This document shows, in pieces, positions 1 through 24,976 of a DNA stretch of 24,976 bases. The notes beneath the pieces are model-generated. The model saw nothing but the letters and a program-made list of their open reading frames with translations, had not been told where the DNA came from and made no database searches. The translations under genes and the position numbers were made by a program. How positions within the stretch are numbered: the first letter of the stretch is position 1; each line of letters opens with the position of its first letter. This DNA comes from a virus (Duplodnaviria; Caudoviricetes), in the IMG/VR virus record IMGVR_UViG_3300021082_000090, positions 1 to 24,976 of that record; one strand, 5' to 3'.

Positions 1-108
1 GCGCGGCGAGTACTTCCGCATTTCGTCAAGATTTCAGGCAAATCGACGAATTTCGACCGGTTCAGTTGACATTTGGCCGGGGTTCCCGGCGGGGTTAGGG
101 GTTAGACC

Positions 109-510
109 ATGGGCGGTCGTCGACCAGAACCAACGGCGTTACGAGTCCTCCGCGGGAACCCTGGGAAACGCGGGATCAACCATGCCGAACCGCAGTCCGG
201 ACCGTTGTCACCGGATTGTCCGGACGAATTGACGAACCCGCTCGCGCGCAAGGAATGGGACCGCGTGGCGCCCGCGTTGATTGCGTCGGGCGCGGTCACC
301 GTGGCGGACCGGTCGACCCTGATTGCCTATTGCCAGAAATGGGCGGAATGGTTAGACGCTTCCAAAAAGACAACGACGCGCGACAAGGCGTTGACGCTCA
401 TGTTCCGATTCGCGCAGGACCTGGGCATGACGCCGTCGTCCCGGTCGCGCGTTCATGCGGTTCCAACGGCAACGGGAAAGGGTCAATCATGGGCGGACGT
501 TCTCAAGTAA
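109..510 (+). CDS. terS: Terminase small subunit (P27 family)
   Basis: N-terminal GRRPEPTALRVLRGNPGKR, central AR.EW.RV and D...L..YC, C-terminal LGMTPSSRSRV motif; upstream of terL. Confidence 0.92.
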   Translation: MGGRRPEPTALRVLRGNPGKRGINHAEPQSGPLSPDCPDELTNPLARKEWDRVAPALIASGAVTVADRSTLIAYCQKWAEWLDASKKTTTRDKALTLMFRFAQDLGMTPSSRSRVHAVPTATGKGQSWADVLK

Positions 511-905
511 CCGAAATCCAACCCGATCTACCCTGGACGCCCGACGACCGCGCGTCGTTGGAGCGTATCCGTTCGGTACCCCTTGCGCGGGCGCCGCGAC
601 CGCAACCCGCGCCAGCGGACGCGAGTCCGGCGCCGCCTGTTCAGACCATCCATTCCGTCTTGCGGTACCCGGACGTGATTGTCGCGGTCCCGCGCGTCGT
701 TGCGTCCGCGTATGGGCGGCGACCCTGGGCGGACGTTGTCGCCGCGGCAACCGCCGGGACGGACGGACTCGCGTTCGTCGACCGCCCGCGTTGGTGGCGC
801 GGGTTAGCTTGCGAACCGCCGCCGGACCCGCGTGACGTCGCGTTTCTCGCGGAGGGCGAGGACGATTGGCGCGGGCGGACGGTCCTCTATCAACAGAACT
901 GGTGA
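489..905 (+). CDS. Hypothetical protein between terS and terL (start uncertain)
   Basis: 3' part of ORF 216..905 from ATG 489 fills the gap after terS; its TGA overlaps the next GTG (GTGA). Confidence 0.55.
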   Translation: MGGRSQVTEIQPDLPWTPDDRASLERIRSVPLARAPRPQPAPADASPAPPVQTIHSVLRYPDVIVAVPRVVASAYGRRPWADVVAAATAGTDGLAFVDRPRWWRGLACEPPPDPRDVAFLAEGEDDWRGRTVLYQQNW

Positions 906-1006
906 CCGTGACGCGTCCGGAGGTCATTGGCTGGATCGCCATTGGATTGCAAGTCCTCGCGTTGACGTTGATCGGCGTCGGACTGTGGACGCAGTATGGC
1001 TGTTAA
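902..1006 (+). CDS. 34-aa single-pass membrane peptide
   Basis: GTG start coupled to the upstream stop; MTVTRPEVIGWIAIGLQVLALTLIGVGLWTQYGC, one hydrophobic helix; overlaps the terL start. Not in the ORF track. Confidence 0.6.
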   Translation: MTVTRPEVIGWIAIGLQVLALTLIGVGLWTQYGC

Positions 1007-2531
1007 GACCTCCGCGCAAGCGAAACGCGCGATCAACATCATCAACCGGTTGACGCATACCAAAGGTCCGTTTGCCGGTCAACCGTTCAAGCTCCGACCG
1101 TGGCAAGCGCGGATTGTCCGGCAATTGTTCGCGACGCGCGCGGACGGGTTGCGGCAGTACCGGACCGCGTTGCTGATGTTGCCGCGCAAAAACGGCAAGT
1201 CCGAATTGGCGGGCGCCCTCGCGATTTACTTTCTCCTGTTCGACGGCGAGATTGGCGGCGAGGTCTATTCGGCGGCGGCGGACCGGGAACAGGCGGCGCT
1301 CGTCTTCAACGCGGCGGCGACGATGATTCGCAACGCGCCCGAACTCCTCAACGTCGTCGACATTATCGACTCGCAGAAACGGATCGTCCATCGGCAGTCC
1401 GGATCGTTCTATCGCGCGATTTCCGCCGAGGCGTACAGCAAACATGGGTTCAACGCGAGCGTCGTCATTTACGACGAATTGCATGCGGCGCCGAACCGGG
1501 AACTCTGGGACGTCCTCGCGACGTCGCAGGGCGCGCGGTTGCAACCGTTGATGATGGCGATTACGACCGCGGGGTACGACCGCCATTCGATCCTCTGGGA
1601 GCTGTACGCCCATGCGCGCAAGGTCCTGGAGAACCCCGACCTCGACCCGTCGTTTTTGCCGATCCTGTACGAGGCGCCCGTGGATGCGGACTGGACGGAC
1701 GAATCGGTCTGGAAAGCGGCGAATCCGGCCCTGGGCGATTTTCGGTCCCTCGACGAAATGCGGACCATGGCGGCGCGGGCGCGCGAGATTCCCGCCCAGG
1801 AGAATACGTTTCGCCGCCTGTACTTGAACCAGTGGACCGAACAGGCGAATCGCTGGATCGCAATGCCCGCATGGGACGCATGCCGGGTACCCAGGGACCT
1901 CGACCGCTTGCGCGGGCGCCGTTGCTTCGTCGGCATGGACCTGTCGTCGACAAAAGACTTGACCGCGCTCGTCGCCGTCTTTCCAGACGACGAGGGATTT
2001 GACGTCCTCGCGCGTTGCTTTGTCCCGGCGGACGGCATGCGGACGCGCGGACTCCGGGACCGCGTTCCGTACGAGCAATGGGCGCGCGAGGGTCTGTTGA
2101 CCGCGACGCCGGGACCGTCCGTCGAATACAAGGCGGTTCGCGCGACCCTGCATGAATGGGCGTCCCAGTATGACGTCCGGATGATTGCCTTTGACCAGTG
2201 GAACGCGATCAACCTCGTCGACCAATTGCAAAAGGAGGACGGGTTTACCTGCGTCCCGGTCCGGCAGACGTTCAGCGGATTGGCGGCGCCGACCAAATCC
2301 CTGGAAAAAGCGATCCTGACGCGGACGTTGCGGCATGACGGCGATCCGGTCCTCCGCTGGAACGTCAGCAACGTCGCCGTCGAGTCCGACCCCGCGGGCA
2401 ATCTCAAACCGTCCAAAACCGCGTCGACGGACAAAATCGACGCGGTCGTCGCGTTGATCATGGCGGTCGATTTGTTGGACCGCAACGGGCGAACCCCAAC
2501 CCCGACGTACGACATGGTCATCATCGGATGA
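996..2531 (+). CDS. terL: Terminase large subunit
   Basis: Walker A PRKNGKS, Walker B VVIYDELH, coupling motif ITTAG, nuclease motifs GMDLSSTKDLTA and DKIDAVVA. Confidence 0.97.
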   Translation: MAVKTSAQAKRAINIINRLTHTKGPFAGQPFKLRPWQARIVRQLFATRADGLRQYRTALLMLPRKNGKSELAGALAIYFLLFDGEIGGEVYSAAADREQAALVFNAAATMIRNAPELLNVVDIIDSQKRIVHRQSGSFYRAISAEAYSKHGFNASVVIYDELHAAPNRELWDVLATSQGARLQPLMMAITTAGYDRHSILWELYAHARKVLENPDLDPSFLPILYEAPVDADWTDESVWKAANPALGDFRSLDEMRTMAARAREIPAQENTFRRLYLNQWTEQANRWIAMPAWDACRVPRDLDRLRGRRCFVGMDLSSTKDLTALVAVFPDDEGFDVLARCFVPADGMRTRGLRDRVPYEQWAREGLLTATPGPSVEYKAVRATLHEWASQYDVRMIAFDQWNAINLVDQLQKEDGFTCVPVRQTFSGLAAPTKSLEKAILTRTLRHDGDPVLRWNVSNVAVESDPAGNLKPSKTASTDKIDAVVALIMAVDLLDRNGRTPTPTYDMVIIG

Positions 2532-2728: not shown

Positions 2729-2759
2729 AAACCCGTGCGATGGTTGCGGTCCCAACGAT

Positions 2760-4592
2760 ATGGACCGCGCATACGCCCTCCTCGACGTCAAATCGGTCGC
2801 GACCGACCGTCGCACGTTTGCGGGTATGGCGTCGACGCCGGAGCTTGACCGGCAAGGCGACCTCGTCGACCCCGCGGGCGTCACGTTCCGCAATCCCCTG
2901 CCGTTGCTGTTCCACCATGACCGCAAGCAACCGGTCGGGACGGTGACGTTGACCAAACTCGCGTCCGGGATTGCGTTTGAGGCGTCGCTCCCGACCATTG
3001 ACGATCCGGGCGTCCTCAAGGACCGCGTCGACGAGGCGTGGCAATCCATCAAGGCGGGACTGTTGACCGGCGTCTCCATCGGGTTTCGCATCCTGGAGGA
3101 CGGCGTCGAGTACCTCAAAAGCGGCGGCCGGCGTCTCCGCGCGACGGAAATTTGCGAACTCAGTCTGGTCACGATTCCCGCGAACGCCAACGCGACCATC
3201 CTCACGGTTAAGTCATTGGCGGCGCCGCCGCCGCGAAAGGAACGTCCCGCCATGGCCACGACAACGACGACGGAACATGTCACTAACCTAGAAAACAAAC
3301 GCGCCGCGCTCCTGGGACGGATGACGGACATCATGGACACCGCCGCCGCGGACGCGTCGACGCTCGACGACGCCGCCGCGACCGAACATGACGACCTCGC
3401 GGTCCAGGTCAAGTCCATCGACGCGGACCTCGTTCGCTGGCGGGAACTCGACAAGATGCAGGCGGCGGCGGCGAAACCCGTTCCGCCCGCGCCCGGAGGT
3501 CTCGTCGTCCCGCCGCGTCCCGTGATTTCGGTCCGGGCGAACGTCGAACCCGGAACCGGTTTTATCCGGTACTGTCAGGCCCTCGCGGTCGCCAACGGGT
3601 CGCCCATGCAAGCGTTGGAGTACGCCAAACGCTGGCACGATTCGACGCCGGAGGTCGAACTGGTCCTCAAGGCGGCGGTCGCTGCCGGGACAACGACGGA
3701 CGCGACCTGGGCGGGACCGCTGGCGCCCATCAAACCGTTGACGGACGAATTTATCGCCTTTCTGCGACCCGCGACGATCCTGGGCAAAATTCCGGACTTT
3801 ATGAAAGTCCCGTTCAATGTCTCCGTTGGCGCGCAGACGGGCGGCGGAACGTACGCGTGGGTCGGACAGGGCGCGCCCAAACCGGTCGGCAAACTCGCGT
3901 TTACGACCGTGACCCTGGGCATTACCAAATGCGCGGGCATCATCGTCATTACCGAGGAACTCGCGCGCAATTCGACGCCGGACGCGGAAGCGGTCATCCG
4001 GCGCGACATGATCAACGGAATCGCGCAGTTTCTCGACAGTGAATTTATCGACCCGACGAAGGCGGCGGTCGCGGGCGTCTCGCCCGGATCGGTGACCAAC
4101 GGCGTGACCCCGATCACGACCGCGGGTACCTCGCCCGCCAACGCGCGGACGGACATTCAGGCCCTCGCGAACGCCATGGCTGCCGCGAACATTTCGTCCG
4201 CGGGCGCGATCCTCGTGATGTCCGAGACCAACGCCAGCGCGTTGACCAACGCCCTCAACCCGTTGGGACAGCAACTGTTTCCGGGCATGGCGCAGTCCGG
4301 CGGGACGATCATGGGGTACCGCGCGATTACGTCCCAGATTGCCGGGACGACGGTCGCCATGATGAAACCGGATCAGATTCTGTACGCCGACGACGGCGGC
4401 GTGACGATTGACGTTTCGCGCGAGGCGTCGTTGCAGATGGACTCCGCGCCCATGGCGGTCCCGGACGCGACGGTCGTCCTGACGTCCCTCTGGCAGATGA
4501 ACTACGTCGGTCTGAGGGCCGAGCGGTTCATCAATTGGAAAAAGGCGCGAACGGGCGTCGTCCAGTACACCGTCGCGACCTACACCGCGTAA
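2760..4592 (+). CDS. HK97-type prohead protease / scaffold / major capsid fusion protein
   Basis: Protease motifs DRQGDLV, PLLFHHD, VSIGF and ELSLVTIPAN; coiled-coil delta-like segment; HK97 capsid motifs AWVGQGAPKP, GIIVITEEL and VGLRAERFINW. Confidence 0.93.
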   Translation: MDRAYALLDVKSVATDRRTFAGMASTPELDRQGDLVDPAGVTFRNPLPLLFHHDRKQPVGTVTLTKLASGIAFEASLPTIDDPGVLKDRVDEAWQSIKAGLLTGVSIGFRILEDGVEYLKSGGRRLRATEICELSLVTIPANANATILTVKSLAAPPPRKERPAMATTTTTEHVTNLENKRAALLGRMTDIMDTAAADASTLDDAAATEHDDLAVQVKSIDADLVRWRELDKMQAAAAKPVPPAPGGLVVPPRPVISVRANVEPGTGFIRYCQALAVANGSPMQALEYAKRWHDSTPEVELVLKAAVAAGTTTDATWAGPLAPIKPLTDEFIAFLRPATILGKIPDFMKVPFNVSVGAQTGGGTYAWVGQGAPKPVGKLAFTTVTLGITKCAGIIVITEELARNSTPDAEAVIRRDMINGIAQFLDSEFIDPTKAAVAGVSPGSVTNGVTPITTAGTSPANARTDIQALANAMAAANISSAGAILVMSETNASALTNALNPLGQQLFPGMAQSGGTIMGYRAITSQIAGTTVAMMKPDQILYADDGGVTIDVSREASLQMDSAPMAVPDATVVLTSLWQMNYVGLRAERFINWKKARTGVVQYTVATYTA

Positions 4593-4932: not shown

Positions 4933-4937
4933 CCGGC

Positions 4938-6275
4938 ATGGGGGTCTTCTCGACGCTCCGGACCCGGATCGGGTCGGCGTTTGCGGCGCCCGTCCGCGCC
5001 GCCGGACAGGGCGCATGGGTACCGGTTGTCCGCGAGACGTATCCGGGCGCATGGCAGGAAAACGCGGACCCCATTGCGCTCGATACCGCGTTGTCCAATC
5101 CGACCGTCTTTCGGTGTGTCTCGTTGATCGCGGGCGACATTGGCAAAACCCCCTTGCGTCTGGTCGCCCTCGACGACGACGGGATTTGGACGGAGACGTC
5201 CTCTCCCGCCTTTTCGCCCGTCCTCCGGAAACCGAACCGGTACCAGAACATCGGGCAGTTTCTGGAATCGTGGATGTTAAGCAAATTGCTCTGGGGCAAT
5301 GCCTACATCCTCAAGGACCGGGACGCGCGCGGCGTCGTCGTCGCGTTGTACGTCCTCGACCCGACCGGCGTCCAACCGCTCGTCGCACCGGACGGCGCGG
5401 TCTGGTACCAGTTGAACCGGTCCGACCTCGCGGGTCTCGCGGAGGGCGAGCTGGCCGCGCCCGCGCGCGACATCATCCATGACCGCTGGAATTGCGCGTT
5501 CCATCCCTTGGTCGGGTTGTCGCCGCTCTACGCATGCGGCGGCGCCGCGTACGAGGCGAACCAGATTCAACGCTCGTCGTCGGATTTTTTCAGCAAAGGC
5601 GGACGCCCGTCCGGACTCCTGGTCGCGCCAACCGAAATCGACGACCTCGCCGCGCAACGGTTGTCGACGAAATGGCATGGACTGGGTCCGGGCAAAACCG
5701 CCGTCGTCGGGAACGGGATGAAATACCAGGACATTGGGACGTCTGCGGTGGACAGCCAATTGACGGAGCAACAGGGCGCGACGGTCGCAACGATTGCCGG
5801 ATGCTTTGGCGTCCCGCTCGTCTACGTCGATTCGTCGAAGCAACCGCCCTACGCCAATTCGGAAGCGACGCAATTGCAGTATCACGCGGAATGTCTCCAG
5901 GTCCATATGGTCGGCATTGAACGCGCCCTCGACGAGGGATTGGAACTCCCGACGCCGTACGGGACGGAATTTGACGTGGACTTTTTGCTCTGGATGGATA
6001 CCGCGACGAAAACCGCCGCCGCCAAGGACGGCATTGCGTCCGGGGGTCTCACGATCAACGAGGCGCGGAAAAAGTACTACGGACTGGGACCGGTTCCCGG
6101 CGGCGAGTCCTGTTACCTGCAACAACAGATGTTCTCGCTCGACGCGTTGGCCGAACGGGACGCCGCGTCGCCGTTCAGTAAGCCGACGCCCGCGCCCGCG
6201 GCGCCAACCTTGCCGCCGGTCAATCCCTCCGAGGAGGACGTTGCCGCGACGGTCGGCGCGTTGTCGGAGTCCTGA
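4938..6275 (+). CDS. Portal protein (HK97 family)
   Basis: TVFRCVSLIAGDI, LRKPNRYQ, LLWGNAY, IIHDR, VGLSPL, IAGCFGVP, G.LTINEAR...GLGPVPGG. Confidence 0.95.
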   Translation: MGVFSTLRTRIGSAFAAPVRAAGQGAWVPVVRETYPGAWQENADPIALDTALSNPTVFRCVSLIAGDIGKTPLRLVALDDDGIWTETSSPAFSPVLRKPNRYQNIGQFLESWMLSKLLWGNAYILKDRDARGVVVALYVLDPTGVQPLVAPDGAVWYQLNRSDLAGLAEGELAAPARDIIHDRWNCAFHPLVGLSPLYACGGAAYEANQIQRSSSDFFSKGGRPSGLLVAPTEIDDLAAQRLSTKWHGLGPGKTAVVGNGMKYQDIGTSAVDSQLTEQQGATVATIAGCFGVPLVYVDSSKQPPYANSEATQLQYHAECLQVHMVGIERALDEGLELPTPYGTEFDVDFLLWMDTATKTAAAKDGIASGGLTINEARKKYYGLGPVPGGESCYLQQQMFSLDALAERDAASPFSKPTPAPAAPTLPPVNPSEEDVAATVGALSES

Positions 6276-6276
6276 T

Positions 6277-6627
6277 ATGGCGTTGGAGTACTCGCATGAC
6301 GCCGTCCGCGCCGTCGTCCCGCCGCTCGTCACGTTGGCGGACGCGAAGGTCCATCTCCGCGTGACCGATTCCGCGCATGACGCGGACGTGAGCGACAAGC
6401 TCGCGGTCGCGCAAGCCTGGGTCCTCGCGTACATGGGTCCCGCGGGCGATACGACCTGGACGTCGACGACGGCGCCCACACCGGTCATCCATGCGATCAA
6501 GATTGTTTTGACGCTCCTGTACGAACACCGCGGCGACGACATGGACTCCGGAACGTCCTCCGCGGAGGCGACCTGGGGTCATATCCGGACCCTCCTGTCC
6601 GGATTCCGCGATCCGACGTTGGCGTAA
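6277..6627 (+). CDS. Head-tail connector (HK97 gp6-like adaptor)
   Basis: LVTLADAKVHLRV, D...SDKL..A, AIKIVLTLLYEHRG; ATG 6277 directly after the portal stop. Confidence 0.88.
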   Translation: MALEYSHDAVRAVVPPLVTLADAKVHLRVTDSAHDADVSDKLAVAQAWVLAYMGPAGDTTWTSTTAPTPVIHAIKIVLTLLYEHRGDDMDSGTSSAEATWGHIRTLLSGFRDPTLA

Positions 6628-6629
6628 TC

Positions 6630-6968
6630 ATGCCCGCGGTTGGTACCTACCGTCATCGGGTCACGTTGACCAATCCCGGATCGCCGGTCCCGGACCCGGA
6701 CGGCGGGTGGTCGGAGACCCCGGTACCCCTGGTCCCGCCGTCCTGGGATTGCTCCATCGAACAGGCATCCGCGCGAACCCTGGAATCCATCGGCGCGGGG
6801 TCGGTCCTCGCGCAAGCGACGCATCTGGTCCGCGGGCGCTTCCATCCAGGGATTACGACGCAGACGCGCGTCACGTTCGGCGCGCGGACGTTGTCGGTCC
6901 TGTTTGTGGCGAATCGCGACGAACGGAACATCGAGACCGATTTAGTGTGCGCGGAGGTCGTTACGTGA
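6630..6968 (+). CDS. Head closure / head-tail joining protein (SPP1 gp16-like)
   Basis: G.YRHRVTL, D.DGG, THLVRGRFHPGITT..RV.FG.R, terminal LVCAE. Confidence 0.85.
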   Translation: MPAVGTYRHRVTLTNPGSPVPDPDGGWSETPVPLVPPSWDCSIEQASARTLESIGAGSVLAQATHLVRGRFHPGITTQTRVTFGARTLSVLFVANRDERNIETDLVCAEVVT

Positions 6969-7024
6969 AACAGCGTAACGACCTCGAGGTCGACGCCGGC
7001 GAAAATCGTTGGGGTTCAAAGTAA

Positions 7025-7414
7025 ATGGGTCTCCGATGGACGGGACTGGACGAATACCGGGACGCCCTCGCGGCATGGCCGGGACTCGCGGCGGCGGACG
7101 CGGCGAATCAGGTCGAACGCGCGGCGGAATCCGCATACGAAACGATCCGATCGCGGTACACGGTCGTCACGGGACATTTGCGCGACAGTCTCCAACGCGC
7201 GGACGTCACCAAAGACGCCATGAAACCTAGTTGGCGCGTCTGGAATGACGCGATCTATGCGCGCGTCTGGGAGTCCGGCGGCATGACGACCGCGGGTCCC
7301 TCGACGCCCGGAAAGAATTTCATTCCGAACATGCAGCGCCAACGCACGGACCTCCGCGGCGACTTGATCGAAATCGTGAAGACGGGCGCCGAACGCGTCA
7401 CGGTCAACGAATGA
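7025..7414 (+). CDS. HK97 gp10-like neck / tail completion protein
   Basis: GLDE...L, TGHLRDS and YARVWESG motifs; synteny. Confidence 0.75.
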   Translation: MGLRWTGLDEYRDALAAWPGLAAADAANQVERAAESAYETIRSRYTVVTGHLRDSLQRADVTKDAMKPSWRVWNDAIYARVWESGGMTTAGPSTPGKNFIPNMQRQRTDLRGDLIEIVKTGAERVTVNE

Positions 7415-7878
7415 CGCATCCGGACTCCGGCAAGATTTCGTCCGCGCTCGTCGCCGCCTTGCAAGCGGACGCGACCCTCGCGGGACTGATGCCCGACGGG
7501 GTCTGGTACGGCGTCGCGGCGCCAGGACTCCAACGGTTCGTCCTGGTCACGTTGATGATCGGAACGGACTCCGGCGTATTCGGGACGCGCGCGATTGAAG
7601 AACGGTTGTATGTGGTCAAAGCGGTTGGGTTGTCGCGCGTCGTCAATATCGCGACCATGAAATCCGCCGCACACCGCATTGACGAATTGCTCGACCTGGA
7701 GACGTTGCCGATTGCGGACTTTAGTTGGATGGACTGCGTCCGCGAGGAACCCTTAGAGGACCCCGTACCCGATCCGCTCGACCCGTCGTTGGTCTGGCAC
7801 CACTACGGCGGGCAGTACCGCATACAGGTTAGTTGGCCGGACCCCGTTCCGGCGGGAGAGGACGCACATGTCGATTAA
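7411..7878 (+). CDS. Tail terminator protein (DUF3168-like)
   Basis: ALVAALQADATLAGL..GVWY..AP...FV; lies immediately before the tail tube; ATGA coupled. Confidence 0.75.
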   Translation: MTHPDSGKISSALVAALQADATLAGLMPDGVWYGVAAPGLQRFVLVTLMIGTDSGVFGTRAIEERLYVVKAVGLSRVVNIATMKSAAHRIDELLDLETLPIADFSWMDCVREEPLEDPVPDPLDPSLVWHHYGGQYRIQVSWPDPVPAGEDAHVD

Positions 7879-8470
7879 ATCCGGACGGTACGGCAAGGTG
7901 GCGTGGGACGCCGCGGGCGGGTCCGCGCTCGTCCAGATCATTTCGATCAATTCCTGGAAAGCCTCGTTTGCGACGGATTACGAGGACGTTAGTTGTTTTG
8001 GCGATACAAATCGGGTCTACGTTCCGGGCGGACTGATGGATATCGGCGGCGATTTCAGTGGATTTTGGAACTCCGCGGAACTCGCGTTGTTCAAAGCGGC
8101 GACCGCGGCAACCCCTGGAACGTTGCAGCTCATGCCGAATACGACGGAGTCCGCGTTTTTCTGGCAGGGTCCCGCGTACATGGATGCGGACATTGATTGT
8201 TCGTTGTCCGCGCCCAAAGTGACTGGGACCTTCAAAGCGTCGGGACCGTGGACCTCGCCCGGACAGGTCATGGCGACCGGCGCGGGACCGGGTACCGGCA
8301 ACGGGACGTTTACGCCCGCGAACGCGACGCCGCCGACGAATTTTGCCGCGTTGACCGGCGTGACCGCGAACCCCGCGACCAATTGGACGTCGGGTCAATT
8401 TATCCAACTGGCGGACGGGACCCGCGCCAACTGGAACGGGACCGCATGGGTCGCGGGCGTCCACGCGTAA
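7868..8470 (+). CDS. Major tail (tube) protein with a C-terminal appendage
   Basis: SW.ASF..D..DVSCFGD...YVPG..D..G.FSGFW beta-rich tube pattern; GGAGAGGA RBS; synteny. Confidence 0.85.
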   Translation: MSIKSGRYGKVAWDAAGGSALVQIISINSWKASFATDYEDVSCFGDTNRVYVPGGLMDIGGDFSGFWNSAELALFKAATAATPGTLQLMPNTTESAFFWQGPAYMDADIDCSLSAPKVTGTFKASGPWTSPGQVMATGAGPGTGNGTFTPANATPPTNFAALTGVTANPATNWTSGQFIQLADGTRANWNGTAWVAGVHA

Positions 8471-8473
8471 GCG

Positions 8474-8749
8474 ATGCTGTTCGACGAGGTCGCGTTGCGC
8501 GGGTTGGAGGGTACCGTCGTCTGGGGGTACCACACGGCGGCGGTTTGCCGGACCTGGGTCGCGCGACGGATCGTCGGCGGGCAGTGGACCTTGACCGCGT
8601 CCGTCGTTCGGGCGGACGCGTTCCAATTGCGGCAACGGGATTTGAAATTTACCGCGCCGCGGGTCGGCGGGTTTTTCTGTTGGCCGATTGTCGCGGTCTC
8701 CCAGACCGGGACGACCTTGGCGGCGACGTTAGGACCGCCGGAAAGTTAA
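8474..8749 (+). CDS. Hypothetical tail-region protein
   Basis: Fills the gap between the tube and chaperone genes exactly (3-bp spacers); beta-rich. Confidence 0.7.
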   Translation: MLFDEVALRGLEGTVVWGYHTAAVCRTWVARRIVGGQWTLTASVVRADAFQLRQRDLKFTAPRVGGFFCWPIVAVSQTGTTLAATLGPPES

Positions 8750-8752
8750 GCC

Positions 8753-9208
8753 ATGCCGCGTTCGCGTTTTGTGCAACCGCAAACGACGATCCTCACGTTG
8801 GGCAACGGCGATACCCTCGTCGTCCGGCGGCGTCTCAACGTCGGCGAACAACGCGCGTCGTACCGTCTCTGTTCGGACGTCGTCGAACAACCGGACGGGA
8901 CGGTCAAGCTCGTTCCCAATCCGTTGATGATCGGCATGGCGAAGGTCGCTGCGTACCTCGTCGACTGGAACTTGGCGGGCGACGACGAACCGATTCGCGG
9001 TCTCGACCTCGCGCAACGGATCGCGGTCCTCGACAACATGGACCCCGCGTCGTTTGACGAACTCAAGACGGCGGTCGACGCCCATGAGTCCGCCGCGGTC
9101 GCGGACCGTCTCGCGGAAAAAAAAATCCTGACTGGCTCGACCAACGCCGATCCGACCTTGGACTCGCCGTCCGTTGCGGTTGGCGCGTCGACTGGGTCCG
9201 CGAGCTAG
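8753..9208 (+). CDS. Tail assembly chaperone (gpG-like)
   Basis: Position before the tape measure gene; LVDWNL motif; slippery A9 tract near the 3' end. Confidence 0.85.
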   Translation: MPRSRFVQPQTTILTLGNGDTLVVRRRLNVGEQRASYRLCSDVVEQPDGTVKLVPNPLMIGMAKVAAYLVDWNLAGDDEPIRGLDLAQRIAVLDNMDPASFDELKTAVDAHESAAVADRLAEKKILTGSTNADPTLDSPSVAVGASTGSAS

Positions 9209-9258
9209 ACCCGGATGATTACGCCCTCCTGGTTGAATTGGTCACGCCGCGCGAGTAA
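9113..9258 (+). other. Programmed -1 frameshift site and gpT-like extension
   Basis: GCG GAA AAA AAA ATC (A9 at 9117-9125). The -1 frame reads NPDWLDQRRSDLGLAVRCGWRVDWVRELDPDDYALLVELVTPRE and stops at 9256-9258, 3 bp before the tape measure ATG, as in the lambda G/GT arrangement. Confidence 0.88.
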
Positions 9259-9261
9259 CCC

Positions 9262-11085
9262 ATGCCGATAACCGGCCATTTCGAGGCGGACTTTTCCCAA
9301 TTCAACGAGGGCGTCAAGGACGCGACGGAGACCCTCAAGGACTTTCAGAAAGATTCGACCAACGCGGGCAAGGAAATCGACAAACTGGGGAAAGAGGCGC
9401 CCGCCGCGATCAACAAGATTACGACGGAGACGAAGGGCGCCAGTACCTCGTTGATCGACATGTCCGGCGTCGCGAAACAATTGGCGGGCGTCATGGCGGG
9501 CGCGTTCAGCGTCAATGCCATTCTGAATTTCGCGCAATCGGTCCTCGATACCGCGGACGCCATTGGGAAACTGTCCGCGCAAACGGGCATGACCTACGAC
9601 GAGGTCCAGCGTCTCCAGTACATCAGCGGACAGACCGGATCGGGCATGGGCGCGTTGACGAGCGCCGCGCAGCAATTACGCATCGACCTGGGCGACGACA
9701 ACAAGGGCGTCGTGGCCGCGTTGAAGCATCTGAACATCAACCTGGAGGACTTCAAGGACCTGGGCGCCTATTCCCAGATGACCCAATTGTCGACGGCGAT
9801 TGCCGGTCTCAAAAATCCGTACGATCAGGCGACGACCGCGGAAGCGTTGTTCCACAAACAGTGGAAAGAAATTTTCCCGGCCATGAAAACGGACATGGGC
9901 GAACTGGGAAAACAGGCATGGGTCATGGGCGACGACATGGTCAACAACATGCGTCGGACCAAGGACGAATGGGCGGCGACCAAACAGGCGTTGACGTTTG
10001 TCGGCGGCGAGATTATCGCCGTCATGCATGCCGTCGCGGAGGAGGTCAAGAAAGGGACCGCGGGTCCCGGCGGACTGGGCGGAACCTTTGACGCGTACGT
10101 CGTCGCGATTAGCAAATCCATTGCGGACCTCAAAGCCAAACTGGGCGGCGGCGAGTCCGGATTGGGCGGCGCCATTGCGGCGATTCCGCCGTTGCTCAAA
10201 CCGGTGGAAACCGGATTCAAGGCGATTGCGTTGTCGGCGGCGGACGCCAAGGTACAGGAGGACTCCTGGACGGCGTCGATCAAGGAACGGATCGCCCAGG
10301 AGAAAACGGAGCAAGACTTTCTCGCCGCGCAAAAGGTCCATTACGAGGCGGTCGCGTCCCTCCAGGATCAGATTTTCGGGAAACCCGCATTAGACAAAGC
10401 GGTCGTCTGGTCGGACGCCATGGTGGGACTCAGCGACGACGTCGGCAAGCTCTCCGCGGAGATGCGGGTCGACCTGCAAAACGCGCTCGTCGCCGCCCAG
10501 GGCGAAATGCAGAAACTCGGACTCCTGAACTCGGACCTCTCCGTCCGGTACTCCACGCTGATTTCCGCGGTCGATACGTTCAACGGGTCCATGACACGGA
10601 CCGCGGAGGTCGTTGTCCCGGCGGCGACGGGCGCGGTCACGGACTTCACGCAAGCGTTGTACGACGAGGCGGTCGCGCAGGACGCGGTTGCGGCGGCGGC
10701 GGCGCGGGCCAACGCCGCGCGGGCGGGCGACATGGCGGCGGCGACCGGCGGCGGCGGCGGGTCGGGCAAGATTGGGTATCTCCCGCCGCGCGGGTCTGAA
10801 GGGTACGTCGCCATGTCCGGCGGGTCGACGTCCGGGTCCGGCGCGGGGTCGAGCTATTACACGCCGCCGCGACGCGCCGCGGGCGGACCGGTCGCCGCGG
10901 GTCAACCGTACGTCGTCGGCGAGAAAGGTCCGGAACTGTTCGTCCCGGGCGCGTCCGGCGCGATTGCTCCGGGCGGCGGCGCGGTCGTCTATAACACGTT
11001 CAATCTCGTCGATACCGAATCCAACCTCGCGCGGCGCGTGAGCGATACGATCCTCCGGACGATTACGTCCGCGCGACGGATGTAA
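9262..11085 (+). CDS. Tail tape measure protein
   Basis: N-terminal ADFSQFNEG, Ala-rich helical body, LSAQTG....VQRLQY, C-terminal RAAGGPV..GQPYVVGEKGPELFVP. Confidence 0.92.
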   Translation: MPITGHFEADFSQFNEGVKDATETLKDFQKDSTNAGKEIDKLGKEAPAAINKITTETKGASTSLIDMSGVAKQLAGVMAGAFSVNAILNFAQSVLDTADAIGKLSAQTGMTYDEVQRLQYISGQTGSGMGALTSAAQQLRIDLGDDNKGVVAALKHLNINLEDFKDLGAYSQMTQLSTAIAGLKNPYDQATTAEALFHKQWKEIFPAMKTDMGELGKQAWVMGDDMVNNMRRTKDEWAATKQALTFVGGEIIAVMHAVAEEVKKGTAGPGGLGGTFDAYVVAISKSIADLKAKLGGGESGLGGAIAAIPPLLKPVETGFKAIALSAADAKVQEDSWTASIKERIAQEKTEQDFLAAQKVHYEAVASLQDQIFGKPALDKAVVWSDAMVGLSDDVGKLSAEMRVDLQNALVAAQGEMQKLGLLNSDLSVRYSTLISAVDTFNGSMTRTAEVVVPAATGAVTDFTQALYDEAVAQDAVAAAAARANAARAGDMAAATGGGGGSGKIGYLPPRGSEGYVAMSGGSTSGSGAGSSYYTPPRRAAGGPVAAGQPYVVGEKGPELFVPGASGAIAPGGGAVVYNTFNLVDTESNLARRVSDTILRTITSARRM

Positions 11086-13379: not shown

Positions 13380-13909
13380 TGCCGATCAACAGGGGTCCGT
13401 TCAATGCCCTAGTCGACGATTCGGGCAATGGGACGTCCGGGTCCATCTGGAACAAGGCGGCGATCCAAAACGTCTTGCTCGATCCGATTGATCAATCCAT
13501 CGGCGCGCCATGGCTCGCGTTTAGTCCGTCCTGGTACGGGTCCGGCGGGATTGGTCCCGGACTCGGGAACGGGACGTCGGCAGGGATCTACGTCGTCATC
13601 GGGAAAATCTGTTTCTTTGAGTTCACGATCTGGACCGGCAGTACGACCAGTTTTGGATCTGGGACGATGTATCAATTCAACGGTCCGACCGTCCCGTACA
13701 GTCCGCCCCTAGCGGGACGCCAGAGCCCCAATATTCAAATGCATTTGATGACCGGCGGCGGCGGCGGCGTCCCGCTGATTACCTGTATCGGTGGACCGCT
13801 TGGTTTTTACGGCGTCACCGTGACCGGCGCACTACTGGGTCCAACGGCGCCGCACACCCTGGACGCCGGGACCGCGTTTTTTTGCCGCGGGACGTATCCG
13901 ACGACCTGA
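13379..13909 (+). CDS. Putative receptor-binding / short tail fibre protein
   Basis: Last structural gene; W.AFSPSW......LGNGT..G.Y.VIGK.CF pattern typical of fibre head domains. Confidence 0.65.
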   Translation: MPINRGPFNALVDDSGNGTSGSIWNKAAIQNVLLDPIDQSIGAPWLAFSPSWYGSGGIGPGLGNGTSAGIYVVIGKICFFEFTIWTGSTTSFGSGTMYQFNGPTVPYSPPLAGRQSPNIQMHLMTGGGGGVPLITCIGGPLGFYGVTVTGALLGPTAPHTLDAGTAFFCRGTYPTT

Positions 13910-14459: not shown

Positions 14460-14505
14460 TGGTCGGGATGATCGGATTTGAACCGATGACCCCCTGACCC
14501 CCAGT
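14460..14505 (-). other. attP core: 3' half of tRNA-Pro(GGG)
   Basis: Minus strand reads A-CTGGGGG-TCAGG-GGGTC-ATCGG-TTCAAAT-CCGAT-CATCCCG-ACCA: anticodon loop, T-arm, acceptor 3' strand and CCA. The 5' half is absent. Lies ~220 bp upstream of int. Confidence 0.9.
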
Positions 14506-14726: not shown

Positions 14727-16013
14727 ATGCCACGCCACAACCGGATCGCGTTGACCGACCGCGCCATCCGCGCCGCCAAAGTCCAACCCGGACGGGCAAC
14801 CGCCGACCTGTTCGATTCGCTCGTGGTCGGACTCGTCCTCCGCGTCTCCGCGACCGGTCGCCGCGTCTGGTACGCGACGTATAAGAAACCCGGCGCGACA
14901 AACAAAACCTGGATGACGGTCGTCGATCCGGCGTCCGGGTCGTACGCGTACCCGATTGTTGACCTGGGACGGGCGCGCGAACTCGCGACCGAACTCCTGA
15001 AGGTCGCCGGGACGGGCAAGGACCCGCGCGCGGTCGTCGCCGCCGCCGCCGCCAAACAGGTCGAACAGGCGTCGCGGACATGGACCGACCTGGGCAAGCT
15101 CTATATCGACGTTTGGGCGCGCCCGCGCAAAAAAACGTGGAAGGACGATCAGGCGGACATTAAACGCCAACTGGCGGATTGGGCGACGACGCCGGTCGTC
15201 GAGACGACCCGCATGGACGTCAAGCGATTGACGGCGTCCATCATTGCCCGCGGCGCGCCAACCCGCGCCAATCGCATCCATTCCCTGATTTCAAAAATGC
15301 TCTGGGTCGCGTTCGACCATGAATGGGTCCCCATGAATGTCACGGCGCGCATGGGGAAACCCGCGCCCGAACAGAAACGGCGCCGCCGGTTGTCCGACGA
15401 GGAGGTCGCGAAATTCTGGGACTGGTTGAACCGACCCGCGCCCGCGGACCTCGACGAGGTCCTTGCGAACAACTGGGTCCTGTACCGCGCGATGTTGAAA
15501 CTCCGGTTGATGACCGCGGCGCGCGGGAATGAAATCCTCTCCATGCGATGGGCGGACCTGTCCTGGTCGACGGGTCCGGAGGGATCGTGGTGGACGATTC
15601 GCGAGACGAAAAACGGGCGGTCACACCGGTTGCCGTTGACGACCCTCGCGATCAAGGTCCTCCGCGACCTGGAATCGCGCGCGACCGACCTGGACCCGGA
15701 GACGTTCGTATTCGCCGGGATTCGCGGCAAGCGGCAGCAACGCGGGTTCCTGGTCGATCTACCCTTCCGGAAAACGACGGAGGGATTCAAACCGCGGGAC
15801 TTGCGGCGGACCGTGACGACGAACCTCGCGGCGTTGGGCGTCTCGCGGTTTGACGTGCAACGGGTCCTCAATCATGCGGACCCGGACGTGACCGCGGACT
15901 ATGACCTGTATGCGTACGGTCCGGAGAAACGCGCCGCCCTCGACAAGTGGGACGCGCGGTTGACCGTCCTCACAACGCCGCCGTCGACGCTCCGTCTCGT
16001 CGACCGCGCCTAA
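14727..16013 (+). CDS. int: Tyrosine integrase (P4-like, with N-terminal arm-binding domain)
   Basis: N-terminal LTDRAIRAAK..D....GLVLRVSATG.R.W; catalytic TAARGNEI, ETKNG, RDLRRT, LNH and DY; adjacent to attP. Confidence 0.95.
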   Translation: MPRHNRIALTDRAIRAAKVQPGRATADLFDSLVVGLVLRVSATGRRVWYATYKKPGATNKTWMTVVDPASGSYAYPIVDLGRARELATELLKVAGTGKDPRAVVAAAAAKQVEQASRTWTDLGKLYIDVWARPRKKTWKDDQADIKRQLADWATTPVVETTRMDVKRLTASIIARGAPTRANRIHSLISKMLWVAFDHEWVPMNVTARMGKPAPEQKRRRRLSDEEVAKFWDWLNRPAPADLDEVLANNWVLYRAMLKLRLMTAARGNEILSMRWADLSWSTGPEGSWWTIRETKNGRSHRLPLTTLAIKVLRDLESRATDLDPETFVFAGIRGKRQQRGFLVDLPFRKTTEGFKPRDLRRTVTTNLAALGVSRFDVQRVLNHADPDVTADYDLYAYGPEKRAALDKWDARLTVLTTPPSTLRLVDRA

Positions 16014-16244: not shown

Positions 16245-16397
16245 TTAGCGCGGCGGTTTTTTCGGGAACCGCCGCGGTCGATTCCAGTACGGCGATTTGC
16301 ATTTCGGACAGGTCGCGGGCGCGTACCCCTTTTCCCGCGGCATCCATTCGTACCCGCAACGTTCACACCGCCAACCCGTGAAATGAGCTTTCGCCAT
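16245..16397 (-). CDS. 50-aa C4 zinc-ribbon protein, basic C-terminus
   Basis: MAKAHFTGWRCERCGYEWMPREKGYAPATCPKCKSPYWNRPRRFPKKPPR: CxxC-x15-CxxC with the CPKCKSPYW motif. Confidence 0.8.
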   Translation of the reverse strand: MAKAHFTGWRCERCGYEWMPREKGYAPATCPKCKSPYWNRPRRFPKKPPR

Positions 16398-16515
16398 GCG
16401 ACGCTTGGGATTGTCGTCTGACGAACGGCGTCGGCAGTATACGCGCCCAATGCCATTGGTTGTAGGAATAGGTCCGACCCCATACCGCGCTGCCCATACT
16501 GAAGCTTGCGACAAA

Positions 16516-17147: not shown

Positions 17148-17356
17148 TTGCCGAGCTCGTCTGCCGGTTGACCGGCGGACATGTATGGATTCAAACCGTC
17201 CAGGACGGGCGGTTGCGTCTGGTTTGTTTGCACTGTCTCGCGCGGACGCATGGCTGGAGTCCGAATGACCAACCCCGAACCAACCCCGTCGACCGACCTC
17301 GCGACGCGACCCGACAAGGTCCCGGTCGCGTTTGGCGTCGCGCCAGAGACCTATGA
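17144..17356 (+). CDS. Small Cys/His protein
   Basis: ATGA coupled; C...GH.W......CLHC; the 3' part overlaps recT. Confidence 0.55.
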   Translation: MIAELVCRLTGGHVWIQTVQDGRLRLVCLHCLARTHGWSPNDQPRTNPVDRPRDATRQGPGRVWRRARDL

Positions 17357-17951
17357 CGCCGCGTACCGCATGGCGAAAGCGTTGTCGGACTCGACGATTA
17401 TCCCCAAGGACTACCGCGGCAAACCGGCGGACGTCCTCGCGGCGATCCTGATGGGCGTCGAGGTCGGATTGCCGCCCATGACGGCGTTGCAGTCCATTGC
17501 GGTCATCAACGGACGCCCAGGGATTTTTGGCGACGGGTTGCTTGCGCTCATTCTGACCTCGCCGCTGTACGTCTCGCATGCGGAATGGTTTGAGGTCCTC
17601 GACGGCGCGGGCGGCGAGATGATCGGGATTGACGCGTTGACGCCGGACGCCCTCGTCCATCCGGCAACGCGCGCGGTCTGTGAGTTTGTCCGCAAGGACC
17701 GCAACGACCCCGTCCGCCGGACGTTCTCCGTCGCGCAAGCGAAACGCGCGAACCTCCTGAACAAACAGGGACCGTGGACGGAGTACCCCGACCGCATGTT
17801 GCAGATGCGGGCGCGGTCGTTTGCCGCGCGCGACGCGTTCCCGGACGTCCTCAAGGGACTGCGAACCCTGGAGGAGTTAACGGACATTTCGGAGGAGACG
17901 CCGCCGCCGGTCGTCCGCCGCAAATCTGAGACGGACCCCGTCGCGGAGTAA
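17265..17951 (+). CDS. recT: RecT/Red-beta-like single-strand annealing protein
   Basis: IPKDYRGKPADV...G.EVGLPPM.ALQSIAVINGRP and W.EYPDRML..RA.SFAARDAFPDVLKGL; GGAG RBS. Confidence 0.8.
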   Translation: MTNPEPTPSTDLATRPDKVPVAFGVAPETYDAAYRMAKALSDSTIIPKDYRGKPADVLAAILMGVEVGLPPMTALQSIAVINGRPGIFGDGLLALILTSPLYVSHAEWFEVLDGAGGEMIGIDALTPDALVHPATRAVCEFVRKDRNDPVRRTFSVAQAKRANLLNKQGPWTEYPDRMLQMRARSFAARDAFPDVLKGLRTLEELTDISEETPPPVVRRKSETDPVAE

Positions 17952-17953
17952 TC

Positions 17954-18628
17954 ATGGCGGCGCGCGGTCTCACGTTCGACGAGCCATCCCATACGTACCT
18001 GTTGGACGAGGTCCCGGTTGTCTCCGTAACCGGGGTTCTCAAACGCGCGGGGTTGATCGATTTCTCCTCCATTCCGAACGGCATCCTCGAGACCGCCCGC
18101 GCGCGGGGTACGGTCGTCCATCGGGCGGTCCACTACTACAACGAAAACGACCTCGACGTCGACCGGTTCGTCGCGGACTTTCCGGACTGCGCGGGGTACC
18201 TCCACGCGTGGATCGCGTTTACGGAGCAACGCCATTTCCGCGCGGTCCTCAACGAACGGCGGGTCGCGTCGCGGCGGCATCAGATTGCGGGGACCGCGGA
18301 CTGTTTTGGTCTCCTCGACGAGCATCCGGTCCTCTTGGACTTCGCGACCGGTCGACCCCAGGACGTCGCCAAGGACCTCCAGACCGCCGCGTACTACGCC
18401 CTCGCGACCGAATGGGCGGCAGAGGACGACCCGGAACTCGCGGCGTTTCTCGCCAAGACCCGCGGGGTCCTCCGGCGGTACGGCGTCGCCCTCCGCAAGG
18501 ACGGGACGTTTTCGCTCGACCCGTATACCAACCCGTCCGATTTCCGCGAGTTTCTGACCCTCCTCGACGCCCAACAAATCGTCGCGCGGCGACGCCCGAA
18601 TCGCGAGGAGATACCGGAGGTCGCATGA
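17954..18628 (+). CDS. PD-(D/E)xK exonuclease-like protein (motif lysine replaced)
   Basis: FDEPSHTY, SVTGVL, RGTVVH, E..V, AGTAD, LDFATG, LQTAAY; next to recT. Confidence 0.8.
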   Translation: MAARGLTFDEPSHTYLLDEVPVVSVTGVLKRAGLIDFSSIPNGILETARARGTVVHRAVHYYNENDLDVDRFVADFPDCAGYLHAWIAFTEQRHFRAVLNERRVASRRHQIAGTADCFGLLDEHPVLLDFATGRPQDVAKDLQTAAYYALATEWAAEDDPELAAFLAKTRGVLRRYGVALRKDGTFSLDPYTNPSDFREFLTLLDAQQIVARRRPNREEIPEVA

Positions 18629-19847: not shown

Positions 19848-19852
19848 ACGCA

Positions 19853-20493: not shown

Positions 20494-20497
20494 GCCT

Positions 20498-21235: not shown

Positions 21236-21240
21236 ACGCC

Positions 21241-21690: not shown

Positions 21691-21751
21691 TGCAGGCGCT
21701 GACGCGCCGATCCCCTGTGGAAAACGCAAAAACGACGAAGAAAAGAACGCT

Positions 21752-22906: not shown

Positions 22907-22909
22907 CCC

Positions 22910-22993
22910 ATGCGTCGGGAGGACGTGTGGATTGCGTTGTTCGCGTTGCCGTTGGCGGCGTTCGCGTTGTGGTTGCTCTGGGTGATCCTCTGA
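22910..22993 (+). CDS. 27-aa membrane peptide
   Basis: MRREDVWIALFALPLAAFALWLLWVIL; TGATG coupled to HNH. Not in the ORF track. Confidence 0.6.
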   Translation: MRREDVWIALFALPLAAFALWLLWVIL

Positions 22994-23310
22994 TGCGGTA
23001 TTGCGCGCAACCCGGATGCGGAACCCTCGTCGACGGCGGACGTTGCGTCGTCCATGCGCGGACGCGCGAACATGCGCGCGGCAATCTCGCGATTCGCAAA
23101 CTGTACAAGACCGACCGTTGGGAACGTCTCCGGTTGCGGGTCCTCGTCGAATCCGACTACCAATGCGCCCAGTGTGGACAGGTCACGGCGGACCTCCAGG
23201 TCGATCACATTCGCCCGCATCGTGGCGACGTCGGGTTGTTCTGGGACCGTTCCAACGTGCAAGCGTTATGCGTTCCCTGTCATACGCGGAAAACAACGCG
23301 AGGCGAATAG
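22993..23310 (+). CDS. HNH endonuclease (HK97 gp74-like packaging cofactor)
   Basis: CAQPGC..C..H, Y...RW..LR, CAQC, VDHIRPH.G..LFWD.SNVQALC.PCH.RKT. Confidence 0.92.
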   Translation: MRYCAQPGCGTLVDGGRCVVHARTREHARGNLAIRKLYKTDRWERLRLRVLVESDYQCAQCGQVTADLQVDHIRPHRGDVGLFWDRSNVQALCVPCHTRKTTRGE

Positions 23311-23451
23311 ATGAAACGCATACCGATTCCTGTAGAACAACGACCTTGTCAGGATTGCGGACTAGTGCATTGGTGCGCGAAGCATCCGCCGAATACGCCC
23401 GCGGCGAATCGCTGTTTCTCTTGCTGGCTGCGGTTTATCAGAGGCGAATAG
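23311..23451 (+). CDS. 46-aa Cys-rich protein
   Basis: MKRIPIPVEQRPCQDCGLVHWCAKHPPNTPAANRCFSCWLRFIRGE; abuts both neighbours. Not in the ORF track. Confidence 0.65.
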   Translation: MKRIPIPVEQRPCQDCGLVHWCAKHPPNTPAANRCFSCWLRFIRGE

Positions 23452-23571
23452 ATGACCGTTGACCAAATGCAAACGGCGTCGATCATTCTGGTCGGACTCG
23501 CGGTCATCATCCTTGCGATCAACGTCATCGTCGGCGCCGTTGTCGCGCGTCGCTATGGACGGCGGCAATGA
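23452..23571 (+). CDS. 39-aa single-pass membrane peptide
   Basis: MTVDQMQTASIILVGLAVIILAINVIVGAVVARRYGRRQ; ATGA coupled to the next gene. Confidence 0.65.
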   Translation: MTVDQMQTASIILVGLAVIILAINVIVGAVVARRYGRRQ

Positions 23572-24137
23572 GAACCCTTGACCGCGGCGCAATCGTGACG
23601 TTGTCGGACGAGGAGGTCCGGATCGCCGCATGGATTGGGCGTCGACGCTCCGAGGTCGCCCGCGCCGCCGGGATTCCCGATTACAAGGTTCGCCCAGGGA
23701 ATCGCTCAGGGGTCGAGGTCGACATTGATGGATTCGGCGCGGAACTCGCGTTTTGCAAACTGGTCAACGTCTACCCGGACCTGAGTCCTCAACCCAAATC
23801 CGGCGGCGCCGATTGTCTCGTCGTCGGGTCTTACGTCGACGTCAAATCGCGACGCCAACCGAACGACGACCTGTTGGTCATTGCGCGCCCAGGGAAACAA
23901 ACCGGGATCGATTGGTATGCCCTGATGATTGTCAATTGGCCGACGTTCCGATTCGCGGGCGCCATTCAGACGCTCGACCTCGTACGCCAACCCGTCGTCG
24001 ACCTGGGATATGGACCGACGTACGCGGTACCCCAGAACAAACTCTCTGATTTCCGCTTGACATTGACGCCCGAACAGGTCGAGGAGTATTGCGCCCATGC
24101 CGTCAAAGCCGACGAAATTCGGTGGACGATCCGATAA
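23568..24137 (+). CDS. PD-(D/E)xK restriction-endonuclease-like protein
   Basis: G.GAELAF (helix Glu), GGAD (Asp), VDVKS (D-x-K), then DWYAL..V. Confidence 0.72.
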   Translation: MRTLDRGAIVTLSDEEVRIAAWIGRRRSEVARAAGIPDYKVRPGNRSGVEVDIDGFGAELAFCKLVNVYPDLSPQPKSGGADCLVVGSYVDVKSRRQPNDDLLVIARPGKQTGIDWYALMIVNWPTFRFAGAIQTLDLVRQPVVDLGYGPTYAVPQNKLSDFRLTLTPEQVEEYCAHAVKADEIRWTIR

Positions 24138-24270
24138 CCAATCGCAACGGGAGTTTCTGAAACTCCTCCGTCCGGCGTCGATAGTGGCAATCGTCGACGG
24201 TCAACGATTGCCGTTGCGGGTCCGCGTTCCGCGGTCGAAGTGTGGACCGTCGTACGGGTTCAATAAATGA
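24097..24270 (+). CDS. 57-aa basic hypothetical protein
   Basis: GAGGAG RBS before ATG 24097; MPSKPTKFGG...PSYGFNK; TGA overlaps the MTase ATG. Not in the ORF track. Confidence 0.55.
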   Translation: MPSKPTKFGGRSDNQSQREFLKLLRPASIVAIVDGQRLPLRVRVPRSKCGPSYGFNK

Positions 24271-24881
24271 GGGTCCTCATTGCCGGTGAATTTAGCGGCA
24301 AGGTACGCGACGCGTTTACGGCGCGCGGGCATTATGCGAAATCCGTCGACTATCGCCCAACGGAAACGCCTGGTCCGCATCATCAGGGATCGTGGTACGA
24401 CGCGGCGTTGTTGCATGAATCCTGGGACCTGATGATCGCGCATCCGGACTGTACGTTTCTCACAGTCTCAGGCGCCCGCTGGTTCGCCGTCGAATGGCGA
24501 CAGGAAGCACAGTTAGCGGCGTTGCATACGGTTCGCGCGTTGTTCAAGTTTCCCATTGACAAAATCGCAATCGAAAACCCAATCGGTCGCCTGTCCACGT
24601 TGTTCCGTCCGCCCGACCAGATTGTCCAACCGTTCCAGTTTGGCGACCCGTTCCGCAAAGCGACATGTCTCTGGTTAAAGAATCTCCCGCCGTTGGTCCC
24701 AACCCGTGACCTGGGCGACGGCGACGCCGCCTGTTGGCGCGAACCGCCCGGACCCGACCGCCAACGCAATCGCTCACGCACGTACGCCGGGATTGCGGAC
24801 GCCATGGCGGACCAGTGGGGTCAAACTACTTGCGACCGCAACGAATCAGGCGTTACGTTGATCGACGTAATGGCTCGATAA
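24267..24881 (+). CDS. Short phage DNA cytosine-C5 methyltransferase-like protein
   Basis: VLIAGEFSG (motif I-like), WDLMIAHPDCT.L (catalytic Cys motif IV variant), IAIENP (motif VI), QPFQFG...K.TCLW, RSRTY.GIA.AMA.QWG. Confidence 0.78.
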   Translation: MRVLIAGEFSGKVRDAFTARGHYAKSVDYRPTETPGPHHQGSWYDAALLHESWDLMIAHPDCTFLTVSGARWFAVEWRQEAQLAALHTVRALFKFPIDKIAIENPIGRLSTLFRPPDQIVQPFQFGDPFRKATCLWLKNLPPLVPTRDLGDGDAACWREPPGPDRQRNRSRTYAGIADAMADQWGQTTCDRNESGVTLIDVMAR

Positions 24882-24894
24882 AGTAACGTAACGC

Positions 24895-24976
24895 TAAGTG
24901 ATTGAAAACACAGGAGATACAGATACGCGGAGACCGGGGGGGATACCCAACCATACATTTTTTTTCGGCGGCGGAC
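24895..24976. promoter_or_regulatory. Probable cos-proximal region with an IHF-like site
   Basis: Minus strand TTTCAATCACTTA (24895-24907) is one mismatch from WATCARNNNNTTR. A G7 tract and a T tract follow. Position is just before terS if the genome is circularised. Confidence 0.4.

Follow-up and report, generated by a model that had tools for sequence, protein, structure and literature searches.

The stretch of DNA analysed here (hereafter the window) is the whole of the IMG/VR virus record IMGVR_UViG_3300021082_000090, comprising 24,976 bases at 63% GC with a completeness estimate of 89%. Judged by its sequence, it is the near-complete genome of a small, temperate HK97-type phage. Our subject is the scarcity in this genome of the tetranucleotides RGCY (GGCC, AGCC/GGCT and AGCT), which an initial annotation had put at about 10-fold and had ascribed either to long-term escape from an RGCY-cutting host defence or to mutational erosion of methylated sites, the methylation possibly being the work of the phage's own enzyme.

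Genes for the small (109–510; phrog_83, E 3e-28) and large (996–2531; phrog_9, PF20441) terminase subunits, a prohead protease fused to an HK97-type major capsid protein (2760–4592; phrog_617, PF04586, PF05065) and a portal protein (4938–6275; PF04860, E 1.5e-71) are all on the plus strand, as are the neck, major tail, tape measure (9262–11085) and likely tail-tip genes of positions 6277–13909 (phrog_40, 25, 5, 10528 and 9483). The tail-tip genes, 3′ of the tape measure, take their name from position alone. The large terminase subunit gene, which serves here as the clade marker, holds 4 RGCY sites where 32 are expected.

A likely attP core (14460–14504, minus strand) adjoins the integrase gene. 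It corresponds to the 3′ half of a tRNA-Pro-like sequence with a CCA end and matches an annotated tRNA-Pro at about 80%; an Rfam search of this candidate gave no match. The tyrosine integrase gene (14727–16013, plus strand; phrog_1, E 5e-51, PF00589, PF13356) contains 1 RGCY against 27 expected, and its open frame, taken together with the att core, suggests that the phage is temperate. Between the integrase and the early genes lies a small open frame with a zinc ribbon (16248–16415, minus strand), a possible regulator, which recurs beside the integrase in G042 and is also present in G039 (such codes are our handles for the genomes and loci compared). On the plus strand, a RecT-like annealing protein and an exonuclease (17265–18628; phrog_561, phrog_298; 1 RGCY against 28 expected), an HNH endonuclease that is likely terminase-associated (22996–23310; phrog_144, PF01844), a DUF5843-like viral protein that is a candidate for the phage's own nuclease (23568–24137; phrog_18407, E 3e-7; Atlas; PF19161 below cut-off) and a short putative cytosine methyltransferase of PHROG 757 (24267–24881; phrog_757, E 9e-60; 1 RGCY against 13 expected) complete the features considered.

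A nucleotide search of 50,697 phage records returned zero matches to the window, the best terminase matches among those records were less than 48% identical, and no cultured relative of the phage emerged from these nucleotide and terminase searches. An 11-kb IMG/VR contig equals the window save for 2 bases, and relatives at 82–86% protein identity sit on contigs of 8–25 kb. At least 0.9 of the sampled window words were found in three runs from three studies, covering freshwater sediment and soil, one of which may be the source of the record; among the runs listed there was no RNA dataset containing the phage. The terminase group itself is very large and uncultured, with 6,282 of 7,999 scored clusters at E ≤ 1e-100.

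RGCY and other depleted words

The window contains 73 RGCY sites (GGCC 23, AGCC/GGCT 28, AGCT 22) where its composition predicts 620, an observed/expected ratio (O/E) of 0.12, so that about seven in eight sites are gone. The depletion reported in the initial annotation is thus genome-wide, at about 8.5-fold by composition rather than 10-fold, and the five hand counts given there (1, 1, 2, 1 and 0) were all exact on recount. Every RGCY word is depleted by composition (GGCC 0.09, AGCC/GGCT 0.10, AGCT 0.26); RGCY stands at 0.16 of pooled relatives, each kilobase holds 0–5 sites, and every tested gene and spacer is low. The depletion is real, and a clade-wide background is not its source: among 91 terminase-clade rows one relative, L008, is alone equally low (0.13), the next stands at 0.32, and the median is approximately 0.76. 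Under a Markov model, here of second order, as had been proposed for a check, GGCC (0.18, z −12.4) and AGCC (0.44, z −5.3) were still low and AGCT (2.84) was not; this over-representation indicates that the rarity of AGCT already follows from that of AGC/GCT. Among words described as abundant, CGCG and TCGA are indeed common; GATC is so by composition (1.26), yet at about one third of its level in most relatives.

RGCY is, however, one part of a far wider purge and not its unit. Whereas AGGCCG (0 seen, 55 expected) and CGGCCG (1 and 65) are nearly absent, CAGCCA (8 and 13) and CGGCCA (13 and 49) are partly kept and AAGCTC/GAGCTT is spared (9 and 9). AGCA (0.31) and AGCG (0.42) are low too, and GCAC, GAAG and CACC are as rare as RGCY or nearly so; neither these words nor CGATCG, which is also depleted, contain RGCY. 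Compared with relatives, both strands are low for AGC/GCT (0.33 and 0.32), CAC/GTG (0.28 and 0.31) and GAAG/CTTC (0.17 and 0.21), and GCAC stands at 0.15 on the plus strand, with its complement similar. Though AGC and CAC are broadly low, CAAG stands at 0.82 against 0.22 for GAAG. With loss dependent on flanks and many RGCY-free words equally rare, RGCY cannot be treated as a single CviJI-type site, as had been suggested.

At the level of 6-mers, 156 of 1,085 well-sampled words (14%) fell at O/E ≤ 0.15, compared with 0–1.8% in 18 typical relatives, the reference being leave-one-out on 14 of these 18 genomes. Eight of the 18 testable palindromic 6-mers were nearly absent by the same threshold, and ACCGGT, TCCGGA and GGTACC were over-represented. 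The palindromes that have been lost include GGCC, CGATCG, GGATCC, CTGCAG and GCCGGC, all of them classical Type IIP sites. When motifs were fitted greedily with codons taken into account, 34 that are all but absent had to be assumed, against 4 weak ones in a control set. The log-likelihood of held-out genes rose from −2752 for the base model to −2265, −2091 and −2008 with 1, 2 and 4 weight matrices, and was −2051 with 8. The rise through 1, 2 and 4 matrices supports several specificities at work.

Avoiders across the terminase clade

By 5-mer score, 11 of 88 terminase rows, approximately one in eight, are strong avoiders; four outgroup or distant rows were excluded from the 88-row tree analysis, and scores are rougher for several rows just 4–6 kb long. 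The avoider label changes 8 times on the tree, 7 of these changes being forced by well-supported branches, with slight clustering. By terminase, the window sits nearest to L152 and L148, both of them unremarkable (RGCY 0.85 and 0.86). Word sets differ in part between avoiders, whose 5-mer correlations with the window range from −0.06 to 0.52: G042 has nearly lost GTAC, CCGG, GCGC and CGAC, G046 has nearly lost GTAC and CCTC, and L008 has nearly lost AGCT, GAGC and CAGC, with RGCY a separable feature there (×0.15). No accessory gene split avoiders from the other genomes compared.

Several further observations concern this group. In G045 (L209–L210), the non-palindromic 4-mer CAGG/CCTG stands at 0.01 of expectation across 29.5 kb, and this genome encodes a PDDEXK_14-like protein (L209:2787–3350). 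L272 is an extreme avoider in which, over 10.6 kb, ACTG/CAGT is absent and CCAG and AGTC stand at about 0.05. GTAC alone is nearly absent in L147, L150, L156, L018, L180 and L247, a clean single-site avoidance in the same phage group. A gene of 140–165 aa with no Pfam match occurs at L207:17652–18149 (minus strand), L211:18190–18621, L210 at about 8950–9430 and L236 at about 550–990. It was seen first in four avoiders (in L207, adjoining the integrase gene), after which 37 viral loci were found to carry it; the window lacks it. Part of its product, compared by eye, resembles the C-terminal domain of RNA polymerase alpha. The gene is weakly enriched among avoiders but was rejected as a strict marker of them, with 9 avoiders among 33 new loci against 11 among 88 (p 0.06), the reference being less fitting for the more distant phages in the 33-locus set. 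Finally, ARAGORN reports a tRNA with a CUA anticodon in G042 (L207:16613–16688, minus strand), which may be spurious.

Selection, mutation and the phage's own enzymes

Both strands and all three reading frames show the loss alike, and spacers are as poor as genes. Strand symmetry together with the frames and spacers points to selection on double-stranded DNA, and an mRNA- or tRNA-level cause is ruled out by strand symmetry and spacer depletion. Lost sites were mostly swapped for other synonyms and not for C-to-T products. Of the two origins offered initially, escape from a defence fits this strand-symmetric, synonymous rewriting of frames and spacers.

The other origin, erosion through deamination of 5-methylcytosine (m5C) that the PHROG 757 enzyme or host methylases would have introduced, fares poorly. 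In the Ala frame, where both deamination products alter the protein, sites should be spared, but 14 of 195 Ala codons after G are GCY (relatives 36%), compared with 31 of 76 after T (relatives 41%). At invariant Ala columns, 2 of 19 codons are GCY against 0.34 (p 0.019), and a clear shift from Ala to Val/Thr is absent. Of 9 codon contexts, 8 contradict the proposition that all lost sites went to the transition product (p ≤ 2.5e-4). A hypermutation-equilibrium model, tuned to the observed loss, was rejected at p ≤ 4e-7: the transition product makes up 4 of 82 non-site codons for Gly before T, where 0.26–0.49 is predicted, and 16 of 476 for Val, where 0.16–0.40 is predicted. Of the predicted products that the initial annotation had described as very common, GGTC/GACC (1.97 versus relatives) and GGTT/AACC (2.16) are indeed common, about twofold up, but AGTT/AACT shows no enrichment (0.91). 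The frequent Gly-Pro use of GGA noted there is non-discriminating, since GGA before CY arises either way; the choice of GGA or GGT before CY was dropped as a discriminator because GGA is also the deamination product of GGG in that context. The substitution spectrum was unusable in four metagenome runs, where many phages are mixed.

Gene 24267–24881 is a putative C5 cytosine methyltransferase. Its Atlas names agree with the PHROG 757 assignment; PF00145 was unmatched and a PDB sequence search gave no match. In the best 80 of 444 viral loci with relatives of this gene (44–63% identity), RGCY O/E is 0.58–1.62 throughout, so that the depletion does not track the gene, although erosion by this family would lead one to expect that it did, and RGCY loss is not tied to the family. 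With relatives merely 44–63% identical, the window enzyme may have a private specificity. Among 50 clade records there was 1 weak PHROG 757 match and 7 PF00145 matches, 6 of the latter in non-avoiders. G042 and G045, both near-complete strong avoiders, have neither a PHROG 757 nor a PF00145 gene, and they avoid other words than the window. L008, though the sole relative with the same RGCY loss, is uninformative on this link because it is only 57% complete.

The DUF5843-like gene (23568–24137) lies directly 5′ of the methyltransferase gene, and the two (23568–24881) are arranged like a minimal nuclease–methylase pair, the nuclease being predicted by eye. Its product has a D..D-x-K pattern resembling that of PD-(D/E)XK nucleases, again by eye, with D82 and K93 conserved in 5 of 5 rows; from a weak model (pLDDT 56), Foldseek retrieved no similar fold. 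The family occurs in 3 of the 50 clade records, namely one mild avoider and two non-avoiders, and is absent from G042 and G045. Distant relatives of the gene were found at 13 loci, all of which have AGCC at 0.39–1.65; GGCC is absent in 6 of them, five of these being 27–33% GC and short of other palindromes too. These six loci are L290–L295: the five AT-rich ones lack CATG and other palindromes, and in L290 (52% GC) CGCG, CTAG and AGCT are nearly missing as well.

Explanations and comparison with known systems

We consider it probable, at roughly 0.6, that the purge of RGCY and many other short words reflects selection against the sites of several sequence-specific DNA defences, of the restriction-modification type, in the host lineage. 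Phage lineages would meet hosts with many restriction-type specificities, or move between strains that differ in them; each removed site would make entry more likely, and every loss would pay off where specificities are numerous or changing, so that codons and spacers would be silently rewritten over long times. RGCY would then be the overlap of several sites, among them GGCC, AGC-containing words and some 6-bp palindromes. The extent of the loss, its strand symmetry and presence in all frames, the replacement by non-transition synonyms and the scattered occurrence in the clade are observed directly; that host restriction is the agent, and that each lost site benefits a phage facing many specificities, is what we infer from them.

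A number of points weigh against this explanation. The avoidance is unusually strong for an integrase-bearing phage: according to Rusinov et al. (2018; PMC6286503), the elimination of sites is mainly a feature of phages that are not temperate and of orthodox Type II sites, is rare among temperate phages and hardly touches the sites of Type I, IIG and III systems. In the window, 148 of the 156 rare 6-mers lack overall palindromic symmetry, though many hold a 4-bp palindrome, and depletion is graded, with 5–25% of sites kept for most words. Of the 53 RGCY sites within genes, Trp-Pro pairs account for only 4; the other 49 could be silently removed, and their persistence would be unexpected if strong Type IIP cutters were at work. 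The 34-motif list was fitted in-sample only, and held-out genes were predicted less well with 8 matrices than with 4, so any count of specificities is provisional. A simple one-site avoidance model fails in several contexts, where transition products are in excess (xxA before TG, 23 of 83, p 4e-15; Gly GGT before CA/CG, p 5e-6; Leu, p 8e-4); other avoided words could force these choices. One codon context, xxG before TG, fits deamination (0.28 observed, 0.30 predicted), avoiders are lower in GC (median 0.630 versus 0.664), and mutation may have had a part in the purge. Moreover, the host, and with it a cognate enzyme, was not found by att-core, terminase or integrase scans. In metagenomes the sole match to the att core was the window's own contig; in species genomes it matched 1 of 401 in one phylum (3 mismatches), 0 of 401 in another and 0 of 4 in a further set, and against the plasmid and phage rows listed there were 76–89% matches only. 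When species genomes were scanned for the terminase, 5 loci emerged, all distant, and an integrase scan of viral contigs returned nothing. A more speculative proposal, which we regard as doubtful, is that the hosts carry an undescribed, quickly switching defence that reads words which are short, degenerate and in many cases asymmetric, and that acts even against temperate phages.

Four rival explanations appear unlikely, and we take them in falling order of probability. The least improbable is that, as a prophage, the genome came to share the word usage of its host's chromosome, in which these words would be scarce too. The integrase and att core point to prophage periods, the bias is common to every module, and Rusinov et al. 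(PMC6286503) note that site avoidance in temperate phages is like that of their hosts; yet the nearest neighbours are ordinary, the differences among avoiders would demand many differently biased hosts, and the cause would merely be shifted to the host. Somewhat less probable is self-avoidance, in which a relaxed-specificity nuclease encoded by gene 23568–24137 would degrade host DNA, the phage having shed its preferred sites. The nuclease-like pattern beside a methyltransferase gene, the graded and degenerate depletion, largely captured by one or two matrices, and the GGCC-free loci would suit it, but no strong avoider is among the three clade records with the family, the fold search, on a weak model, found no match, and the GGCC-free loci are mostly AT-rich and short of other palindromes, with AGCC retained at all 13.

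A single RGCY-cutting, CviJI-type host enzyme seems improbable to a further degree as the driver. All RGCY words are rare, and L008 shows the same loss with RGCY as a separate feature; the strong flank dependence with some contexts untouched, the low AGCA and AGCG, the rare words that hold no RGCY and the persistence of 73 sites contradict such an enzyme as the whole cause, although it may be a component. Lowest of all we place m5C-deamination erosion. In its favour are the putative C5 methyltransferase, the twofold rise of GGTC and GGTT, the codon context that fits and the share of fourfold codons ending in A or T (12% in the window, 4% in relatives), but these are outweighed by the rejections over codon contexts and at equilibrium, the depleted Ala frame, the undepleted methyltransferase-bearing loci and the avoiders that have no such gene. 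An RGCY signal beside a phage methyltransferase therefore need not mean methylation erosion.

The avoidance surveyed by Rusinov et al. (PMC6286503) is mainly lytic, palindromic and due to few Type II enzymes, whereas here about one eighth of a temperate-phage clade has shed much of its short-word repertoire, in sets that partly differ. Such a pattern points to very large restriction arsenals in the hosts, to phages that pass through many different hosts, or to a DNA-reading defence yet to be recognised. From the missing words comes a testable fingerprint that could tie these uncultured phages to hosts through methylomes. Were the switching-defence proposal true, each hyper-avoider genome would be a negative print of its host's specificities, computationally matchable to host and enzyme. 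Among the papers listed in searches of the open-access literature, none describes this avoidance pattern.

Among known systems, the restriction avoidance of Rusinov et al. (PMC6286503) is similar in that a double-stranded DNA phage has lost sites on both strands, several of them to under a tenth of expectation and palindromes included. It differs in that the window phage bears an integrase, its purge takes in 14% of well-sampled 6-mers, and its losses are mostly non-palindromic, graded and recurrent within one clade with differing word sets. R.CviJI, from Chlorella virus IL-3A, cuts RGCY (PMC3681635), and all RGCY words are rare in the window; the depletion there, however, is flank-dependent and extends far beyond RGCY, R.CviJI is an algal-virus enzyme, and among the phage genes none was recognised as CviJI-like. 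The short cytosine methyltransferases of PHROG 757, of which gene 24267–24881, with its putative activity, is a member (E 9e-60), differ from the window in that their 80 best viral loci are without RGCY depletion. In phages with depleted CRISPR protospacer-adjacent motifs, short non-palindromic words are low after codon control, which Kupczok and Bollback (2014; PMC4246573) ascribe to selection. Short non-palindromic words are rare in the window as well, but its effect needs 5–6 bp of context and takes in several word families and 6-bp palindromes.

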